Shown: piece after piece, positions 4,582 to 14,476 of the stretch
Layout: each line of letters opens with the position of its first letter
Position numbering within the stretch: the first letter of the stretch is position 1
DNA from: a virus
Taxonomy: Duplodnaviria > Heunggongvirae > Uroviricota > Caudoviricetes
Strand: one strand, 5' to 3'
Length of the DNA stretch: 15,997 bases
Virus record (IMG/VR): IMGVR_UViG_2545824717_000014
The notes under the pieces: model-generated
The model's input: the letters and a program-made list of their open reading frames with translations, nothing else
The model's database searches: none
Told to the model about the DNA's origin: nothing
Made by a program: the position numbers and the translations under genes

Positions 4582-6933
4582 ATGCGAAACATTGATCTTA
4601 TCCGTCAGGTTATCAGTGCGTCTGAAAACAACTGGCCTCATGTGCTGGACTGCCTGAACATAAATGTCCCTGACTCTCCGCGCCGTCATGCTCCCTGCCC
4701 TGCATGTGGGGGCAAAGATCGATTCCGGTTCGATGACAACGGGCGCGGTAGCTTCATCTGTAATCAGTGCGGCGCTGGTGATGGGCTGGATTTAATTAAA
4801 CGCGTAAATAACTGCGACACAACAGAGGCGGCGCTTCTTGCCGCTGATGTTCTGGGTATTGATTACCGGACAACGGAAACACCAGAAGCCACCAGCCAGA
4901 AACGGGAACAACTGGAAACCGAGCGCCAGCGACGCGAACAGGAGCGCCTGAAAAGGGCAGAGAAGGACGAACAACAAAGACGGGATACGTTTTCCCGTCA
5001 GTTTGATGACATGCGCAGAAAGGCTGTAAACGGCAAATCTGATTATCTGGTTGCGAAAGGGGTAGGTGATTTTACATTCCCTGTGTTGCCCGATGGATCT
5101 CTGTTGCTGGCGCTGGTGGATAAATCCGGCGCAGTCACAGCAGCACAGACTATTACCTCACATGGTGAAAAAAGACTCCTGACAGGTTCAGCAAAGCGAG
5201 GGGCATATCACGCCATAAACGCACAGAAACGACCTCACAGCATCATAATTGCTGAGGGGGTGGCTACCGCCCTGTCGTGCCATTTAATTCGCCCTGACGC
5301 AATGACAGTGGCAGCAATCGACGCTGGCAACCTGTTGCCAGTAGCGGAAGTCATGCGCAGAACATATCCACAGGCACAAATCATCATTGCCGCAGATAAC
5401 GATCACCAGCAAGGAAACTCCGAAAGTGGAGGGATCAACACGGGGAAAGATGCCGCAGAGAGGGCCGCTATTTCCGTAGCTGGCTGGGTGTCTCTGCCAC
5501 CGACTGACTATAAAGCCGACTGGAACGACTATCACCAACAACACGGGCTGGCGGCAGCCACAGCAGCATTTAAAGATTCGATGTACCAGCCACGGGGGAA
5601 AGGGGCGCAGGTGAAAAATCACAAACAGTCAGTCGGGGCGCTGAATGAGATCAGTTCTGGCGAGGTGTTAAGCGATGATGAAATTGCTGTCCTCGAAGAA
5701 ATCAACCGGACGTTTACGCATGTCACCATCGGCGGGAAACACAAGGTGGTGTCGCTAAAGCCTTCTCAAACCGGCGGTGTATCGCACGTTTTCGAGGATT
5801 TATCACAATTTCAGCATTATTTTCATCATAAACCGAGAGTCGCCAGAAAGCTGGCGGGATCGGCGTGGCTGTCATGGAGTGGGAAGAACTACAAGCCAGG
5901 AGGCGTAGGATTTTATCCAGTACCAGACAAATGCCCTGACGATGTTTTTAATCTGTATGAGGGGCTGGCACTGGAACCAATTGAAGGAGATTGCACGGTA
6001 TACCTTAATCACCTGTTGCAGGTTGTCTGTGCCGGTAATGAAGAGGCATACCAATATCTTATCCAGTGGATGGCGCACATTATCCAAAAGCCTGATGAAA
6101 AACCGTCCGTGGCAATCGTGATGAAATCTGTCCCGGGCACAGGGAAAGGCACAACGGTTAAACCGCTGCTGCAAATACTGGGGCAGTACGCCGCCCACAT
6201 TAACGGGGCGGGACATATTTCAGGGCGCTTCAATTCAATACTTGCTAACAAGCTACTGGTATTTGCTGACGAAGTGACGATCCACAAGCCGTCTGAAGCT
6301 GACAGACTTAAAGCGATTATTAGCGAACCGACGTTTAACCTTGAGCGCAAGGGAATTGATGCTGAACCAATGCCGAATTTTGCCCGGTTGATATTTGCCA
6401 GTAACAGCACACAGGTATTACAGGCAGGGATAAGAGAGCGCCGCTATCTCGTGCTTGAGCCATCTCCTGAAAAAGCACAGAGCCGGGAGTATTTTGATCG
6501 GCTGTACAGTTGGCTTAATGATGGCGGTGCCGCAAAGTTGCTTTGGCATCTTAAAGGGGTGGATCTCTCAGGTTTTGACCCTCAACGAGCGCCACAGACC
6601 GATGCCTTACGTGAAGAAATCTTGCTGGGGCTGTCTGGCGTTGAATTGTTTCTTTATGGCGAGCTAATCAATGAACCTCCGTTTAATGGCGAAGTCCGTT
6701 TGTTTGCAAAGGATATGGTTAGTCGATTTGTAGCGTGGTCGCTTGAGCGTGGGGAAAAGCTTAAAGAACCAGCTGCCAGATCACTACTGGGTAAATCACT
6801 TGCACAAATGGGGCTGGTGAAGCATGGAAGACCAGACCGAGGGAATGGCGTGTTCTACGAACTACCAGAGGTCGGAGTTCTACAGGCTGCGTTTGCCCGT
6901 CTGATCGGTATGGGGGGTTATGATGTTTTTTAA
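4582..6933 (+). CDS. Primase-helicase, P4 alpha-like (zinc-ribbon + TOPRIM primase + P-loop NTPase), 783 aa
   Basis: N-terminal CPAC...CNQC zinc ribbon; TOPRIM motifs (IIIAEGVATA with the conserved Glu, IIIAADNDH DxD box); C-terminal P-loop-like VPGTGKGT and Walker B LLVFADEV. Size and architecture match satellite/plasmid primase-helicases (P4 alpha is of similar length). Confidence 0.9.
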   Translation: MRNIDLIRQVISASENNWPHVLDCLNINVPDSPRRHAPCPACGGKDRFRFDDNGRGSFICNQCGAGDGLDLIKRVNNCDTTEAALLAADVLGIDYRTTETPEATSQKREQLETERQRREQERLKRAEKDEQQRRDTFSRQFDDMRRKAVNGKSDYLVAKGVGDFTFPVLPDGSLLLALVDKSGAVTAAQTITSHGEKRLLTGSAKRGAYHAINAQKRPHSIIIAEGVATALSCHLIRPDAMTVAAIDAGNLLPVAEVMRRTYPQAQIIIAADNDHQQGNSESGGINTGKDAAERAAISVAGWVSLPPTDYKADWNDYHQQHGLAAATAAFKDSMYQPRGKGAQVKNHKQSVGALNEISSGEVLSDDEIAVLEEINRTFTHVTIGGKHKVVSLKPSQTGGVSHVFEDLSQFQHYFHHKPRVARKLAGSAWLSWSGKNYKPGGVGFYPVPDKCPDDVFNLYEGLALEPIEGDCTVYLNHLLQVVCAGNEEAYQYLIQWMAHIIQKPDEKPSVAIVMKSVPGTGKGTTVKPLLQILGQYAAHINGAGHISGRFNSILANKLLVFADEVTIHKPSEADRLKAIISEPTFNLERKGIDAEPMPNFARLIFASNSTQVLQAGIRERRYLVLEPSPEKAQSREYFDRLYSWLNDGGAAKLLWHLKGVDLSGFDPQRAPQTDALREEILLGLSGVELFLYGELINEPPFNGEVRLFAKDMVSRFVAWSLERGEKLKEPAARSLLGKSLAQMGLVKHGRPDRGNGVFYELPEVGVLQAAFARLIGMGGYDVF

Positions 6934-6963
6934 TATAGTCTTTTTACAAGAAGATCGTTTTTA

Positions 6964-7066
6964 CCTGTACCACCTATACCACTTTGCTAATTCAGCATTA
7001 AAAACAATGCGTTATAGTGGTACAGGTCAATATCTTACCTATACCAGACCTGTACCACCTATACCA
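6964..7066. repeat. Iteron cluster 1: CCTGTACCACCTATACCA direct copies at 6964-6981 and 7049-7066 plus an inverted partial copy (TGGTACAGG, 7018-7026)
   Basis: Read directly from the sequence immediately downstream of the primase-helicase gene; candidate replication origin. Confidence 0.7.
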
Positions 7067-7109
7067 TTAACAAACGCATTTCTTCTGGCTGGCTGAGAGG
7101 GAACAACCA

Positions 7110-7340
7110 ATGATGAGCACACCATTTTACAAAGTGCGCCAGTTAGCTTCTTCCTCTGGCTGGCAGCTACGGTTTGAGGGGCGTTCAGACTGGCTACCCA
7201 TTGCGGCATGGGCGAATGTTGAAATGTGTATTGACGGCGATACCGTTGAAATCATTATTCCCTGCGTGGCAAGTCGGGACGGCTGTATAGAGCCAACAGA
7301 TATGGCAGCAGAAATCAGAGAGGTAAAACATGAACAATAA
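7110..7340 (+). CDS. Hypothetical protein, 76 aa
   Basis: ORF with a GAGG-like RBS, located between the two iteron clusters. Confidence 0.45.
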   Translation: MMSTPFYKVRQLASSSGWQLRFEGRSDWLPIAAWANVEMCIDGDTVEIIIPCVASRDGCIEPTDMAAEIREVKHEQ

Positions 7341-8067
7341 CTATTGCATACTGCAGGGAATGACCAGAACGGAGCGCGAAGAATTAAAAAGTTTCGCTAC
7401 ACAGTGCGGGAATGCTGGCGACATCCAAAGTCTGGAACGCACTTTAATTATGATTGCGCACTGGATGCGCCAGGGGCAAAGAGTTTCATTTACTGAATAT
7501 GCCAGCCAGTGGACAGAGGCACAGCGCGAACGGAGCGACGGTAATCACTCAACACCCGAAATGGCGAAGCAATGGCCTTTCAGTGGTAAACGCTGTATCA
7601 GTCCCGGTGGTTCAGATTATTACCCTGCTGGTGTGGGAGATGAGCCATGTTGTGACGAGACTGAAATCCGCCACGCAGTGACAGTAATTACCGCTGAATA
7701 CCCACAATTTAACCTTGACGGACTGGCGCTCCACAACCGGAATGCGGACTGGGAAAACCCGCTTGATAACCCGTCATTTATCGTATCGGCGAAAAGCTGC
7801 CTGAGATGGATCAGAGACAACGGGATGAGTAATGCCCAGATTGAGAGCTTCCCGCAGGATAACCCCACATCTGACACGTTGAAGCATGAAGTGGAGCGAT
7901 ATAACCAGATAAACCACCAGCACAGTGATCACCCGCACTATATCCCCAACGGAGCATTTATTGCGGCGATGGTGGCAAGCGGCTACAAGGTTAAGCCAGC
8001 GGGAAGAATGAACGCATTTTTCAATATTTCAAAAAAGGGATTATGTGCTGCTATGGGTAAAAATTAA
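7330..8067 (+). CDS. Hypothetical protein, 245 aa
   Basis: GAGGT RBS 7-8 nt upstream of the ATG; 11-nt overlap with the upstream gene; no motif recognised. Confidence 0.6.
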   Translation: MNNNYCILQGMTRTEREELKSFATQCGNAGDIQSLERTLIMIAHWMRQGQRVSFTEYASQWTEAQRERSDGNHSTPEMAKQWPFSGKRCISPGGSDYYPAGVGDEPCCDETEIRHAVTVITAEYPQFNLDGLALHNRNADWENPLDNPSFIVSAKSCLRWIRDNGMSNAQIESFPQDNPTSDTLKHEVERYNQINHQHSDHPHYIPNGAFIAAMVASGYKVKPAGRMNAFFNISKKGLCAAMGKN

Positions 8068-8073
8068 ATAAAT

Positions 8074-8176
8074 GGTACAGGTCTGTACAGGTGGGGAGAG
8101 GTCATTTTTACCCACCTGTACCACCTGCAGGCCGCGCCACACAAGGGTTTGTGACATGGTGGTACAGGTGGTACAG
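8074..8176. repeat. Iteron cluster 2: GGTACAGG/CCTGTACC copies at 8074-8081, 8085-8092, 8115-8122 (inverted), 8161-8168 and 8170-8176
   Basis: Same core octamer as cluster 1, in both orientations, ~1.1 kb downstream of cluster 1; resembles the paired ori/crr arrangement of P4-type replicons. Confidence 0.7.
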
Positions 8177-8670
8177 CAAAAACAGCGATTTTCTTTATAA
8201 GGTATGTTTTGCTCATCTGGCAGACGGAGGTATTCGCTGCGGTTTGGCACATAGCCCAGAACAGCAAAGAGTTTTACGAGACTTTTGTAAAATCCAGTGT
8301 ACAAGGGCGTGACGTTTTTGAAGGTGAGCACTACGAAATTTTCGTAGTTCAAAAAATAGCCTCTGAGATGTTGTTATGCCTGTTCAGCAAACCATCCGCA
8401 TAGCTGATCGCGAATCAAATTACCAATGGAGCCAGAAGCAAGGGCAGAACTGGAAAGCGCCTGCCGTGAAGAGTAATGCGACTCCATAAATATAGTTTTT
8501 AGAGTCCATAAAAAAACTGTCAAAACCTGACATACAGAACGATGCCACCAGCTACTGAACGGTGGCATTTTTTTGTGCTATTTGTTTCATATTTTGCAAT
8601 CACAATGATGAATGTTGCGTTTTATGAAACTATAATGACTGTTGTTTTATACAGTTCTAAGGGGGGCGTT

Positions 8671-8844
8671 ATGGCTATTTCAGTAAAGCCAGTATTGATA
8701 AGTGAGAAGCAAATGGAAGCGATAAAGAAAATTCAGGAGGAGCAGCGTAAAAAATCAGAGGTAGGAGTTGCGCCAACGATCCACGAAATTGCTCGGGGAT
8801 TAATGGATAAGGCGCTGGCTTACACTTTAACTGGACGTGGGTAA
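8671..8844 (+). CDS. Small protein, 57 aa, possible ribbon-helix-helix DNA-binding protein; first gene of the cargo operon
   Basis: Start chosen at ATG 8671, preceded by the G-rich RBS AAGGGGGG; a -10-like TATAAT lies ~40 bp upstream. The pattern ISVKPVLISEKQMEAIKKI ... IHEIARGLMDKAL is compatible with an RHH fold (weak, by eye). Stop is directly adjacent to the next gene. Confidence 0.45.
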   Translation: MAISVKPVLISEKQMEAIKKIQEEQRKKSEVGVAPTIHEIARGLMDKALAYTLTGRG

Positions 8845-8848
8845 ATTT

Positions 8849-10192
8849 ATGGCTACGTGGCAACAGGGTATTAATTCTGGTGGTTTTCTGGCTGGCATCG
8901 GTGCGCAAAATGAGAATGCGCCAAAGGCAAGCGACATTAACGCAACGCTTGGTCTGATCCGCGAAAACAATGAACTGGCTCCCTCAGGTGCAAATAACGT
9001 TGCTCTGACAGGTCTTCGTGGTCTGGCTGGAGTTGCTGACATTTATAAGCAGCAGCAACAGCAGGAACGTAAAGCGGCATTCCAGAAAGGTTATGCAGAT
9101 GCTTATGCGTCCGGTGACAGGGAGCAGATGCGTAATCTTATTACAGCATTCCCAGAAGAGTTTGAGGAAGTCCGTAAAGGGATGAGTTATGTCGATGATG
9201 CTCAAAGGGATGATTATGGCAATCTGGCGCTCAAAGCACAGGTAGCCTCATCGCTTGGTCAGGGCGCATTTGGCAGGTTCATGATGGATAATGAGCAGGA
9301 GATGCGTCGTTTAGGTATCCCTCCAGAAACTATTGCTGAAATGCAGGTTAATGACCCGCAGGGCTTCCAGCATTTCGCAGGTAATCTGGCGCTGTTTTCT
9401 CTCGGTCATGAGAAGTATTTCGATATCAAAGATCAAATGGAAGGTCGTCGACTTGAGCAAGGGCGACTGGATGAAAGTATGCGTCAGGCTGACATGGAGA
9501 ACGCGAGAGGATGGGCAAATATCCAGAACGCTCAACTAGACAGGGCTCAGCGAGCACAAATTCACTCAGATGAGATGGGATTGAAGCTAATGGAGCTGGG
9601 GCAAAAAGGTAAGCCGTCAGCAGACTTAATTAAGGGATTAAATTCTGACATTACCAATTTTGGCAAAAATTATAACTCTGTCAGAGCGGCGGCAAACTCT
9701 CTGCAAGCCCTTAGCAAGGTAAATACTGGCGCTGCCCAACTTGGGATTATCTTCAACTACATGAAATCTCTTGACCCGCAGTCAGTCGTTCGTGAAGGCG
9801 AACAGGTTCAGGTAATGCGGTCTGATGGCATATGGGGACAAATCAAAGGATACATAGACCAGCTTAATGCTGGAAACGGCCTGTCGCAGGAGGCAAAGGA
9901 TAACATTGTTAACGCCGCAAAAATCAACGCCAATGCTATGGGGCAGCAGTTTAACCAGCAGGTTGACGAGTATCTCGATACATATGGAGAAACTATTCCT
10001 CAGGGGCTAAGAAAAAGCCTTGAAAGAAGGAAAGCGAAGCTATTTGACGATGTTTCCGGGCAGCCTACATCACAGGCTGGCACTGGACAGGCAAAAGCGG
10101 CAACCGGAGGAATATCAGAAGGCGCAACGGCAACCAACCCTAAAACTGGTCAGAAAATCATTTACAGGAACGGAAAATGGCAGCAAATGTAA
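8849..10192 (+). CDS. Hypothetical protein, 447 aa, Q/A/N/G-rich and predicted largely helical; no recognisable catalytic motif (alternative GTG start at 8837)
   Basis: Long ORF whose 3' end overlaps the next gene by 16 nt. Contains a short poly-Gln run (KQQQQQERK) and many amphipathic-looking segments. Confidence 0.7.
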   Translation: MATWQQGINSGGFLAGIGAQNENAPKASDINATLGLIRENNELAPSGANNVALTGLRGLAGVADIYKQQQQQERKAAFQKGYADAYASGDREQMRNLITAFPEEFEEVRKGMSYVDDAQRDDYGNLALKAQVASSLGQGAFGRFMMDNEQEMRRLGIPPETIAEMQVNDPQGFQHFAGNLALFSLGHEKYFDIKDQMEGRRLEQGRLDESMRQADMENARGWANIQNAQLDRAQRAQIHSDEMGLKLMELGQKGKPSADLIKGLNSDITNFGKNYNSVRAAANSLQALSKVNTGAAQLGIIFNYMKSLDPQSVVREGEQVQVMRSDGIWGQIKGYIDQLNAGNGLSQEAKDNIVNAAKINANAMGQQFNQQVDEYLDTYGETIPQGLRKSLERRKAKLFDDVSGQPTSQAGTGQAKAATGGISEGATATNPKTGQKIIYRNGKWQQM

Positions 10193-12294
10193 TCTTACCG
10201 GAAGGTTTTGTGCTCGATGAACAACCTGATAACTCACAGTTTCCTGATAGTTCACAGCTTCCTGATGGTTTTGTGCTTGATGCCCAACCAGAACAGCAGC
10301 AATCACCTTTGGTTTCACCAGAGGAAAATTCCAGACAGGAAAATGTTGTTAATAATGCTAACGGTTTCGACCGTTTTATGTATGGCGTTCTCAGTGGATT
10401 GATGGATGTTGGTAAAGGTGTTGGCCTGTTTCAGGATATGACACCAGAAGAGCAAGCCGCAATTCAGTCTCTACAGCAGAAGTTAGCGGCAAAACCATCA
10501 ACCGCACAAGATGTTGGTGAGTTCGTTGGACAAGCAGCGCCATTTGTTAGTGGTGGTGGGATTATTTCTCAGGTTCCCAAAGGGGCGGCAAGACTGGCTG
10601 CCGCCGCAGGGCTTGGTGCTGGAGAAGGGGCTATTGTAGCCAATGGAACAAATAGCGATGTTGCTTCCGGCGCTGCTATTGGCGCTGTGGCTGGCCCTGT
10701 AGCCGAACTTGCTGGCCCTGCAATTAATAAAATAGCTGGGAAATTAACCAAGAAGAATGTTTCTTCGATTCCAGATATTGAGGGGATTACTCCTGCCGAA
10801 GAGAAAATTCGTAAGTTATCTGCACAAGGCAACCCAAATCTTGCCTCTTCGCTTGAAGGGCTAGATCTAAAACCTCAGAAAGAAATTGTTGAGGCTGCAA
10901 ATAGGCTTCATGTTGATTCAGTTCTTCCTTCTCATTTATCAGGAAATGAGCAATACCAAGCTGTAGAGCAAGCCCTAAAGTCACGGACAGGATCAGCGTT
11001 AAAAGCTCAAGAAGATAAAGCAATAAGCGAATTAGCCTCTAGTGCTGGCAAGATAATCGATGATGTTGCTGGTGCGCCAGATGCGTTAGCTATGAGCGAA
11101 AAATATATTTATCAGATAAATAGTAGAATGGAAGCACTAAAAAACCGTAGTGATCAGTTATATAAACGTGTTGATTCCGCTCTATCACCAAGAACAAAAG
11201 TCGAAGCAAATAACACAAGCACTATGCTGGAAAAAATCGCTGATGATTTAGGAGGGTGGGATAATCTTGACCCAATAGAAAAGCGAGTTTTTACAGCAAT
11301 AAACCCCGGCCCAGATAGCATCCTAACGTATGCAAATTTAAACAGGCAAAGGCGTTTAGTTGGTGATGCCCTAAATAAAAAGCAGGGGCCATACAAAGAT
11401 GCTGATAAAGAAGCGCTATCAAGACTATATGGAGCTTTAGCTGAAGACCAAAAATCTGTCTTATCCAATACTGGATACTTGCGAGATTTCGAAGTCGCAC
11501 AACGCCTTGTAGCTATGAGAAAAAACTTAGAAAGGCAAATGGTAAATCTTCGCGGGAAAACACTTAATGGGGATATAGCGTATAAAGTAACGAATTCTCT
11601 TCAATCTATGGCAAAAGGTGATGCGAGAGGGTTTCGTGAGATTATGCAAAATACTCCATCAAGAACATTGCGAAGGGAGCTAGTAGGAACAGCATTAAGA
11701 GATATGCTTTCCTCTGGGAAGCGTGGGGCCGACTTTAATCCATCTGGCTTCGCAGATTGGTGGCAAAACTTGCAACACAGTGGACAGCTAAAGACTTTGG
11801 CTGAACATTTGCCAAAAGAAACAATGAGCGGACTATATGATGTATACAAAGTTGCCAGAGCAATAAAAAATGCTAAAGCGCATGAAATATCTACTGGTAA
11901 GCTGAATGAGTTTGTAAACAGATTTAATCGGGTAACAGCTCCATACGAACTAGCAGCAAAACACATTCAAAAAATAGGCACGATGGTAGGCGCTCATTTT
12001 GGATCGCTTGGAGCCATTGCTGGGGCTGATATTGGAGCAAGATTGGCGAGTAAAGCTCGATTAGCTGGTGGAGCAGGGGCGGCTGATGCTGCGGATAAAT
12101 TAATTGCCTCGCCAGCCTTCCAGAGCGCAGTAAAAAATCTACACGGAAAAGCGCCTGGGCACATTGTTGATTCACGTATCAGGCGCTCCCCTCAATGGAA
12201 GAGTTTTTTTAACTCTCTTCCTGAACAGGAAAAACGGACCATCGCCAGACTGGGCATCATTACTTGGCTATCTAATGATCCAGATAATGACTAG
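10177..12294 (+). CDS. Hypothetical protein, 705 aa, with N-terminal tandem repeat (PEGFVLDEQP / PDGFVLDAQP) and Gly/Ala-rich hydrophobic segments near both ends
   Basis: ATG with AGGA RBS ~9 nt upstream; start overlaps the stop of the 447-aa gene. G/A-rich stretches (AAAAGLGAGEGAIVANG...AIGAVAGPVAELAGPAI; IGTMVGAHFGSLGAIAGADIGARL...AGGAGAA). No P-loop, nuclease or protease motif identified by eye. Confidence 0.75.
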   Translation: MAANVILPEGFVLDEQPDNSQFPDSSQLPDGFVLDAQPEQQQSPLVSPEENSRQENVVNNANGFDRFMYGVLSGLMDVGKGVGLFQDMTPEEQAAIQSLQQKLAAKPSTAQDVGEFVGQAAPFVSGGGIISQVPKGAARLAAAAGLGAGEGAIVANGTNSDVASGAAIGAVAGPVAELAGPAINKIAGKLTKKNVSSIPDIEGITPAEEKIRKLSAQGNPNLASSLEGLDLKPQKEIVEAANRLHVDSVLPSHLSGNEQYQAVEQALKSRTGSALKAQEDKAISELASSAGKIIDDVAGAPDALAMSEKYIYQINSRMEALKNRSDQLYKRVDSALSPRTKVEANNTSTMLEKIADDLGGWDNLDPIEKRVFTAINPGPDSILTYANLNRQRRLVGDALNKKQGPYKDADKEALSRLYGALAEDQKSVLSNTGYLRDFEVAQRLVAMRKNLERQMVNLRGKTLNGDIAYKVTNSLQSMAKGDARGFREIMQNTPSRTLRRELVGTALRDMLSSGKRGADFNPSGFADWWQNLQHSGQLKTLAEHLPKETMSGLYDVYKVARAIKNAKAHEISTGKLNEFVNRFNRVTAPYELAAKHIQKIGTMVGAHFGSLGAIAGADIGARLASKARLAGGAGAADAADKLIASPAFQSAVKNLHGKAPGHIVDSRIRRSPQWKSFFNSLPEQEKRTIARLGIITWLSNDPDND

Positions 12295-14030: not shown

Positions 14031-14152
14031 TGTTGGTTCAGAGCTGGACTGTGTTGGTTCAAAATGAGTTGATGTTGGTTCAATATTTCTGAAAAAACAC
14101 AATAAAAACAACGATCTTTACAAATTGAACCAACTGAACCAACTGAACCAAC
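14031..14152. repeat. Iteron array: TGTTGGTTCA x3 direct at 21-bp phasing (14031-14040, 14052-14061, 14073-14082), AT-rich spacer, then TGAACCAAC x3 in tight tandem on the opposite orientation (14126-14152)
   Basis: Read directly from the sequence; lies directly upstream of a -10-like TATATAAT (14168-14175) and the PerC-like gene. Confidence 0.75.
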
Positions 14153-14188: not shown

Positions 14189-14476
14189 ATGATAAGGGAC
14201 AGGAAAGCTGAAGAGCTGGAGTCAAAAGGGCTATACCGGAGAGCTGCCGCACGATGGGCAGAAGTCATGATGCTGGCAGATGGCGATAAAGAACGTGAAC
14301 ATGCAGCAAACAGACGCTCTGAATGTATCCGTAAGGCGGCACGCCAACCAGCAACTACAGACAGATTCGGAGATTTAAGACAGGCAGTTAAGCGGACTCA
14401 TTCGGCTCTTGGTATGGATGAGGAAGCGAGAGGGTACTTCAGGCGTTATCGCGATAAAGATTGCCAGAGACAGTAA
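14189..14476 (+). CDS. PerC-family transcriptional activator-like protein, 95 aa
   Basis: N-terminal KAEELESKGLYRRAAARWAEVM matches the conserved PerC/Pch-type signature as I recall it; GAGAGG RBS upstream. Confidence 0.65.
   Translation: MIRDRKAEELESKGLYRRAAARWAEVMMLADGDKEREHAANRRSECIRKAARQPATTDRFGDLRQAVKRTHSALGMDEEARGYFRRYRDKDCQRQ

Follow-up and report, generated by a model that had tools for sequence, protein, structure and literature searches.

Two clusters of a short repeat, and their probable function

What is the function of the short repeats that stand behind the primase-helicase gene of IMGVR_UViG_2545824717_000014 and bracket two further genes? The record is a 15,997-nt sequence classified among the Caudoviricetes, and its full length is referred to below as the window. 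The first cluster (set A) starts directly behind rep, the gene of the primase-helicase Rep, and is separated from the second (set B) by two small genes, p76 and p245. Our analysis indicates that the two clusters are very probably the halves of the replication origin of an island resembling phage-inducible chromosomal islands (PICIs) and the satellite P4, and that they are recognised by the island's own primase-helicase. This assignment draws on sequence comparison, a structural model and analogy. It is carried by the repeats themselves, their conservation, their co-occurrence with the helicase and C-terminal half of Rep, the predicted fold of that half and an architecture shared with tested origins. 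As an origin it is of a known kind; new are its own iteron specificity and the two genes that split its halves. The features concerned are the following.

4582–6933, plus strand: primase-helicase Rep, 783 amino acids (aa), with Pfam matches to Zn_Ribbon_Prim, Toprim_3 and DUF5906
about 6634–6867 (Rep aa 685–762), plus strand: predicted C-terminal winged-helix-like domain, from the topology of an AlphaFold2 (AF2) model
6963–7065: set A, six exact 9-mers at 6963–6971 (−), 6972–6980 (−), 7019–7027 (+), 7037–7045 (−), 7048–7056 (−) and 7057–7065 (−)
7085–7093, plus strand: CTGGCTGGC box, just 3' of set A and upstream of the p76 ribosome-binding site
7110–7340, plus strand: p76, 76 aa, between the putative origin halves
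7330–8067, plus strand: p245, 245 aa
8074–8178: set B, exact 9-mers at 8074–8082 (+), 8114–8122 (−) and 8161–8169 (+); degenerate copies TGTACAGGT at 8084–8092 (+, one mismatch) and GGTACAGCA at 8170–8178 (+, two mismatches)
8131–8139, plus strand: GC box GCCGCGCCA, in the spacer of set B

The octamer GGTACAGG occurs in six exact copies in the window, all of them at 6964–7056 or 8074–8168, while 0.20 copies are expected by chance and none of 200 shuffled sequences reached six. The true repeat unit is the 9-mer GGTAYAGGT (reverse ACCTRTACC), with nine exact copies, or eleven including two degenerate ones, which are all confined to set A (six copies) and set B (five copies). Set A begins 30 nt past the rep stop at 6933 and consists of two tandem copies at a 9-nt period, a 38-nt AT-rich spacer (6981–7018), one inverted copy and three further copies. 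The regional GC minimum (35–37%) falls in this spacer. Set B, at a distance of 1.0 kb, contains two copies, an inverted one, a 38-nt spacer and again two copies. Its overall orientation is opposite to that of set A, and the outer arms form a 24-nt inverted repeat. An earlier sequence-only reading of this locus had described the first cluster as two direct 18-mers plus an inverted copy. The two direct copies of the 18-mer CCTGTACCACCTATACCA are indeed exact, at 6964 and 7049, but its sole inverted copy (8160–8177, two mismatches) lies in set B; the inverted copy of the first cluster is a single 9-mer, and the copy at 7037–7045 had been missed. Likewise, the at least five core copies counted in the second cluster are reached only with the two degenerate ones, three being exact.

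The repeats are non-coding. No gene is annotated over them in RefSeq and alignments with relatives contain 1-nt indels there, which speaks against their being part of a conserved coding sequence, a possibility that the sequence-only reading had raised against itself. In these alignments, conservation in set A is 90% for iteron columns versus 49% for other intergenic columns, and in set B 77% versus 40% (Raoultella, Buttiauxella, Xenorhabdus). The layout of set A is kept in Raoultella, Pantoea and Buttiauxella. DnaA boxes were not found within 800 nt of either cluster, and their number in the window equals chance. Searches with Rfam (E ≤ 1) and tRNA scans revealed no RNA genes in or near the clusters.

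The iteron follows the helicase half of Rep

Rep comprises a Zn-ribbon and Toprim primase (aa 1–340), a DUF5906 helicase of the superfamily 3 (SF3) type and a C-terminal winged-helix-like domain. In the AF2 model of aa 441–783 (predicted local distance difference test, pLDDT, 88) an SF3 helicase is followed by a C-terminal H1-S1-H2-H3-wing topology. Foldseek matched this fragment to the NrS-1 helicase, SaPI5 PriRep and the SaPI1 PriRep1–dsDNA complex, SaPI denoting Staphylococcus aureus pathogenicity islands. Across the family alignment, the Walker A, Walker B and arginine positions do not vary. Rep is thus predicted to be an SF3-type helicase ending in a winged-helix-like domain, as is SaPI Rep.

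A genome scan with the Rep protein returned 24 loci. The C-terminal half is shared only with those of Buttiauxella (L002) and Pantoea (L003), which are also the only two in which GGTAYAGG copies directly follow the stop. A search with the helicase and C-terminal half yielded 163 homologues, among them proteins of Salmonella, Yersinia, Kluyvera and Methylomonas with 79, 59, 55 and 54% identity in this half, respectively. All four have ACCTGTACC-type iterons directly past the stop, whatever their N-terminal domain, and the same iterons were detected in loci of Raoultella and Xenorhabdus that had been found via p245. Together with Escherichia coli, Buttiauxella and Pantoea, this amounts to nine loci that share the helicase and C-terminal half (54–79% aa identity where measured) and have the same iteron directly 3' of the stop. 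In contrast, 16 relatives sharing just the primase domain (aa 1–340) have other iterons (TTGGTTCA, ACGGGTTA, GTTGTCTC, ATCCCTACC and CGGTCACA) in the same place and in the same 9-nt tandem/spacer/inverted layout. Among the loci compared, the iteron hence tracks the helicase and C-terminal half of Rep and not the primase half. The comparison with related islands that the sequence-only reading had called for therefore came out in its favour, as did the distinct specificity it had suggested, the repeat being GGTAYAGGT here and TGTTCACC in P4. The position directly 3' of rep is kept in 25 related loci. For the annotation of satellites, iterons right past the stop of a primase-helicase gene can serve as a usable origin marker.

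The most conserved C-terminal stretches in the class of the window's Rep are the predicted recognition helix (ARSxxGK) and the predicted wing (GRSDRGxGxxYE), which fits an iteron that is unchanged from E. coli to Methylomonas. In the class of Rep proteins with a DUF927-type helicase half, a single short basic stretch of the C-terminal domain, such as QRKSPRI or QGRVRE, separates the iteron types without exception; in the rest of the protein, pairs with the same iteron and pairs with different iterons are equally similar. A related module is carried by the 7.6-kb Vibrio vulnificus plasmid pMP1, in which a DUF5906 primase-helicase is the sole replication-like gene and TTCCACGTT iterons follow rep at a 9-nt period and in both orientations (L041 2181–2480). 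By analogy, this supports the autonomy of such modules. Our data provide a candidate cis element and a putative specificity (ACCTRTACC) for a widespread and hitherto unstudied Rep family, DUF5906 helicases with a winged-helix-like C-terminus, which spans Enterobacterales, Vibrio-type plasmids and methanotrophs. Note that in Methylomonas sp. LL1 a called 108-aa gene lies wholly over the iteron origin (L037 4009–4335) and is probably a spurious open reading frame (ORF) call.

Comparison with known origins

The closest experimentally tested counterpart is the PICI EcCICFT073, for which replication was obtained with a pri-ori plasmid but not with a delta-ori plasmid (Fillol-Salom et al. 2018, PMC6092414). 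As read here, set A of its origin consists of two tandem copies of CTGTCTACC, a 36-nt AT spacer, one inverted copy and three tandem copies. Set B follows after about 30 nt with two inverted copies, a direct one, a spacer with GCCGCGCCA and two inverted copies. The window shares with it the unidirectional island order int-alpA-...-rep-ori-...-perC with the origin directly 3' of rep, the layout of set A, the 2-1-2 order of set B in opposite orientation and the GCCGCGCCA box in the set B spacer. It differs in the iteron (ACCTRTACC rather than CTGTCTACC), in the Rep proteins, which are without BLASTP similarity to each other, that of the window being a Toprim-DUF5906 fusion, and in the distance of the sets, which is about 30 nt there and 1.0 kb with two genes here. 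Furthermore, replication of EcCICFT073 was shown by assay, whereas that of the window is a prediction. Among the PICIs of the 2018 study, our comparison covered those of CFT073, ATCC 25922, 042 and RM13514 and left out ED1a; the compared ones are without this Rep/iteron allele.

P4 resembles the window in its N-terminal primase, Rep residues 7–337 being 33% identical to the P4 alpha protein over 335 aa (E = 9e-41) with the Zn-ribbon and the EG(Y/V)ATA Toprim motif conserved. It also resembles it in combining primase, helicase and origin binder in one protein, although binding is a prediction for the window's Rep, and in having two iteron regions at a distance. The P4 ori has the same order of two copies, AT spacer, one inverted copy and three copies, with start-to-start distances of 10-43-22-11-10 in P4 and 9-47-18-11-9 in the window. 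The differences concern the iteron (type I iteron TGTTCACC in P4, GGTAYAGGT here) and the second half of the protein. Beyond aa 337 Rep has no BLASTP similarity to alpha, and TIGR01613, the model of the P4-family primase C-terminus, scores 20.4 bits against a cutoff of 108.7. A P4-like origin-binding domain in Rep was rejected on these grounds; its helicase and DNA-binding half belongs to the DUF5906/NrS-1-like family and is not P4-alpha-like. The arrangement differs as well, since in P4 it is the cis-required region (crr), a duplicated 120-bp unit, that directly follows alpha; ori is found upstream of the operon, at a start-to-start distance of about 4.7 kb. The crr is annotated in GenBank as a cis-required region for replication. 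Binding of alpha to ori and crr was reportedly described by Ziegelin and colleagues in 1993 and 1995, and a search of the open-access literature returned no citable description of crr function.

The PICI EcCIRM13514 connects the two systems, as it contains the P4 iteron TGTTCACC in the set A/set B layout of PICIs (L039 8054–8340). Given this locus and the shared layouts, P4 ori/crr and PICI origins belong to one architectural kind. The int gene of EcCIRM13514 and an adjacent 216-aa ORF resemble the left end of the window.

SaPI Reps are self-loading helicases whose C-terminal winged-helix domain binds iterons just 3' of rep, around an AT-rich centre (PMC9371898). The window parallels them in the SF3-like hexameric helicase with a C-terminal winged helix (predicted for the window's Rep) and in iterons that lie just downstream of rep, flank an AT-rich region and point in opposite directions; SaPI5 likewise has a fused primase, and the structural match to SaPI Rep had a Foldseek E value of about 1e-7. 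SaPIs differ in their iterons of 5–6 nt, Gram-positive hosts, a sequence identity of 13–15% and another primase type. Iteron plasmids of the RepA/pi/TrfA type use an initiator without helicase activity, DnaA boxes and loading of host DnaB. The window is unlike them, as its initiator carries an SF3 helicase and a primase, and as it has no DnaA box near the clusters.

Putative origin halves and the genes between them

Sets A and B adjoin each other in Yersinia, Kluyvera and Methylomonas. Both p76 and p245 lie between the sets in E. coli, Buttiauxella and Raoultella, and in Xenorhabdus p76 alone does, with p245 downstream of set B. The contiguous arrangement extends from Kluyvera and Yersinia to the distantly related Methylomonas and even to EcCICFT073, which is unrelated; it is therefore likely ancestral and the gene-containing one derived. 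This affects how the pair should be named. The sequence-only reading had proposed an ori and a crr of a satellite replicon, in a geometry analogous to P4. Its assignment to replication is supported by the co-occurrence of iteron and helicase, the P4 ori layout and the predicted fold. A strict ori plus crr fits less well, because the halves adjoin in relatives and because, by position, it is the crr and not the ori of P4 that follows alpha. A single bipartite origin of the PICI type, split by a 1.0-kb insertion, describes the pair better.

A p76 homologue follows set A in six loci (L001, L002, L003, L029, L032 and L034). The family comprises 12 clusters, whose named sources are all Enterobacterales, and p76 gave no match in Pfam, PHROG, NCBIfam or PADLOC. 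The p245 family is larger (29 clusters, all named sources again Enterobacterales) and has many invariant residues; the AF2 model of p245 (pLDDT 81) had no significant structural match. For both proteins, which the earlier reading had listed as uncharacterised, no family could be recognised and no structural neighbour was significant. A p245 homologue with 67% identity was also found behind a RepA-type rep gene with unrelated iterons (L030/L031). Judged by these distributions, p76 is tied to this type of Rep and iteron, and p245 is not. As an iteron binder, p245 was rejected because its homologues adjoin unrelated iterons.

Exchange of the replication cassette

Further information on the extent of the replicon came from sibling islands. 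The relevant features are:

5604–8267, plus strand: putative exchangeable replication cassette with the helicase/C-terminal half of rep, set A, p76, p245 and set B
14033–14151: orphan iteron set of another specificity, with three TTGGTTCA at 21-nt spacing, then an AT-rich spacer and, at a 9-nt period, three tandem GAACCAAC
14189–14476: PerC-family ORF

On both sides of this cassette, up to 5603 and from 8268 onwards, the sibling island of E. coli 51008369SK1 (L027) and the window are 93–99% identical. Between these flanks the sibling encodes a DUF927-type helicase half, followed by six TTGGTTCA iterons; a further set of six TTGGTTCA iterons, in inverted orientation, lies 6.1 kb downstream, adjoining perC. 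DUF927-type siblings hence share with the window the backbone outside the cassette, the N-terminal primase domain, an iteron set that directly follows the stop and another, inverted one further away. They differ in the other half of Rep, the iteron, the place of the second set and the lack of p76 and p245. The junction 5603/5604 corresponds to aa 340 of Rep. The N-terminal primase domain is 45–86% identical in proteins with the DUF927 half, and elsewhere the DUF5906 half occurs with other N-termini, with none, or next to a separate Toprim gene. A domain-shuffling junction thus lies at aa 340. The comparison shows that the cassette moved as a unit together with both of its own iteron sets, which speaks for both belonging to the replicon. 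More generally, replication modules are exchanged as helicase-plus-origin cassettes at the primase/helicase junction, with orphan iterons left behind.

Such an orphan set is present just upstream of the PerC-family gene. A search for TTGGTTCA revealed seven copies in the window (0.73 expected), six of which form the set at 14033–14151. It equals the distal set of the sibling islands and matches their DUF927-type Rep, not that of the window. If a sibling island resides in the same cell, its DUF927-type Rep might replicate the window's island in trans from this set, as from a second, borrowed origin.

Two observations concern the right-hand flank. The 8268–8500 segment, about 230 nt without an annotated feature, is 95–97% identical in about 380 other E. 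coli genomes. It forms the right-hand junction of the cassette and, in sibling islands, the region ahead of the ejection-gene module. Several genomes have two places for the shared flank.

Proposed mechanism and alternative explanations

Expression of the rightward operon would first yield the 783-aa primase-helicase, whose C-terminal winged helix would recognise the 9-bp iteron ACCTRTACC. Rep protomers would assemble on set A, close behind their own stop codon, where the 38-bp AT-rich spacer would melt. The SF3-type helicase could then self-load without DnaA or DnaC, the N-terminal Zn-ribbon/Toprim domain would prime and a host polymerase would extend. Set B, distant and inverted, would bind further Rep and serve either as the other half of the origin or as a partner resembling crr, probably by looping. 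Two cargo genes would have come to lie between halves that adjoin in relatives. In this scheme, the binding of Rep to the iterons, the place of melting, the self-loading and the part played by set B are inferences, the last being the least certain.

An alternative that deserves attention, although we consider it unlikely, is that set A alone is the origin, while set B is a copy-number or incompatibility locus, acting by Rep titration or handcuffing, or a dispensable relic. Extra iteron clusters in iteron plasmids do titrate Rep or handcuff origins. A Salmonella locus without set B keeps set A and p76, two of the five set B copies are degenerate, and several relatives of the DUF927 class show set A alone within the available sequence. 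Against this, the iterons and the GC box of set B are kept across genera while their flanks diverge, most complete relatives, like EcCICFT073, have two sets, the incoming cassette brought its own second set, and the P4 crr bears the annotation of a cis-required element. Two other explanations do without replication. The repeats could be operators for p76 or p245 as a transcription factor of their own or of downstream genes, or the inverted clusters could be recombination sites at the ends of a small mobile or invertible p76-p245 cassette. For the latter it may be said that inverted clusters flank a two-gene segment of 1.0 kb and that related origins without this segment exist. Both are contradicted by loci that carry the iterons without p76 and p245. 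The same iterons and layout are found in Yersinia, Kluyvera and Methylomonas, which have neither gene, the 67% identical p245 homologue stands behind a RepA-type gene with unrelated iterons, the iteron tracks the C-terminal half of Rep and the fold matches of p245 are not significant; an operator function is therefore very improbable. The recombination sites are scarcely credible, as the segment encodes no transposase or invertase, Xenorhabdus has p76 alone between the sets, and target-site duplications beyond the iterons themselves were not seen. Moreover, unsplit relatives already have both inverted sets, so that the repeats predate the insertion.

Several points weigh against the bipartite origin. 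Set B is missing from the Salmonella locus (L034), which has set A and p76, and from the decayed Pantoea locus (L003), and for this reason set B may be dispensable. The spacer of set A is not AT-rich in two relatives (L033, L035). The winged helix is predicted from model topology and whole-fragment alignments, not from a domain-only fold search. Finally, the island may be defective, since one of its ejection-protein genes is a pseudogene in the enterotoxigenic E. coli (ETEC) strain H10407.

With the bipartite origin as the preferred reading, the known loci provide origins whose halves are separated by 30 nt, 1 kb or 6 kb, a natural series that appears suited to probing how the halves cooperate. 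It may be speculated that halves tolerate any spacing within this range (30 nt to 6 kb), cooperate by looping and gather cargo, that both conserved boxes described below are primase start sites and/or sites for host factors, and that the orphan set is a borrowed origin; that all of this holds jointly is quite doubtful.

Conserved boxes outside the iterons

With at most one mismatch, CTGGCTGGC occurs at +150 to +171 past the rep stop in 15 of 19 loci with a fused P4-like Toprim domain and is absent from all six loci without it. This makes the box a possible candidate for a priming or regulatory site; shared descent could also account for it. The excess of CTGGCTGGC in the whole window (19 copies, 3.9 expected) was dismissed as probably due to codon usage (Leu-Ala-Gly), leaving the positionally conserved non-coding copy past set A as the only one of interest.

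The GC box of set B and its context cAGnCCGCGCCAnnnnCTGGnTTT (window 8131–8150) recur in the corresponding part of other origins, which together represent five iteron types and three helicase families. The loci concerned are L028 7189–7210, L010, L011, L014, L035 and L037, and the origin of EcCICFT073 is included. The box is absent from the origins of P4 and EcCIRM13514. A hairpin at the GC box can be formed in some loci but, as judged by eye, not consistently across them, and was rejected.

Island context

The window is a chromosomal island. Compared with complete E. coli genomes, positions 6600–8500 match ETEC H10407 and about 130 others at 98–100%, and the exact replication module is present in 129 of 5426 complete E. 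coli genomes (about 2%). The gene order is int, a helix-turn-helix (HTH) regulator, AntA, several small ORFs, primase-helicase, p76, p245, P22-type ejection genes and the PerC-family gene. The order of int, HTH, DUF4222, rep and perC on one strand is as in EcCICFT073 and EcCIRM13514. The window revealed no capsid, terS or cos function. Scans placed promoters in neither of the clusters and detected no terminator in the gap from rep to p76; p76 and p245 therefore probably share a transcript with rep.

The region 8542–12294 contains P22-type injectosome genes, an unusual cargo for a PICI-like island. One of them, an Inj_translocase/gp20-like gene, is interrupted by a stop near 8844 and is the gene annotated as a pseudogene in H10407. 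Another encodes a 705-aa homologue annotated as 'DNA transfer protein'.

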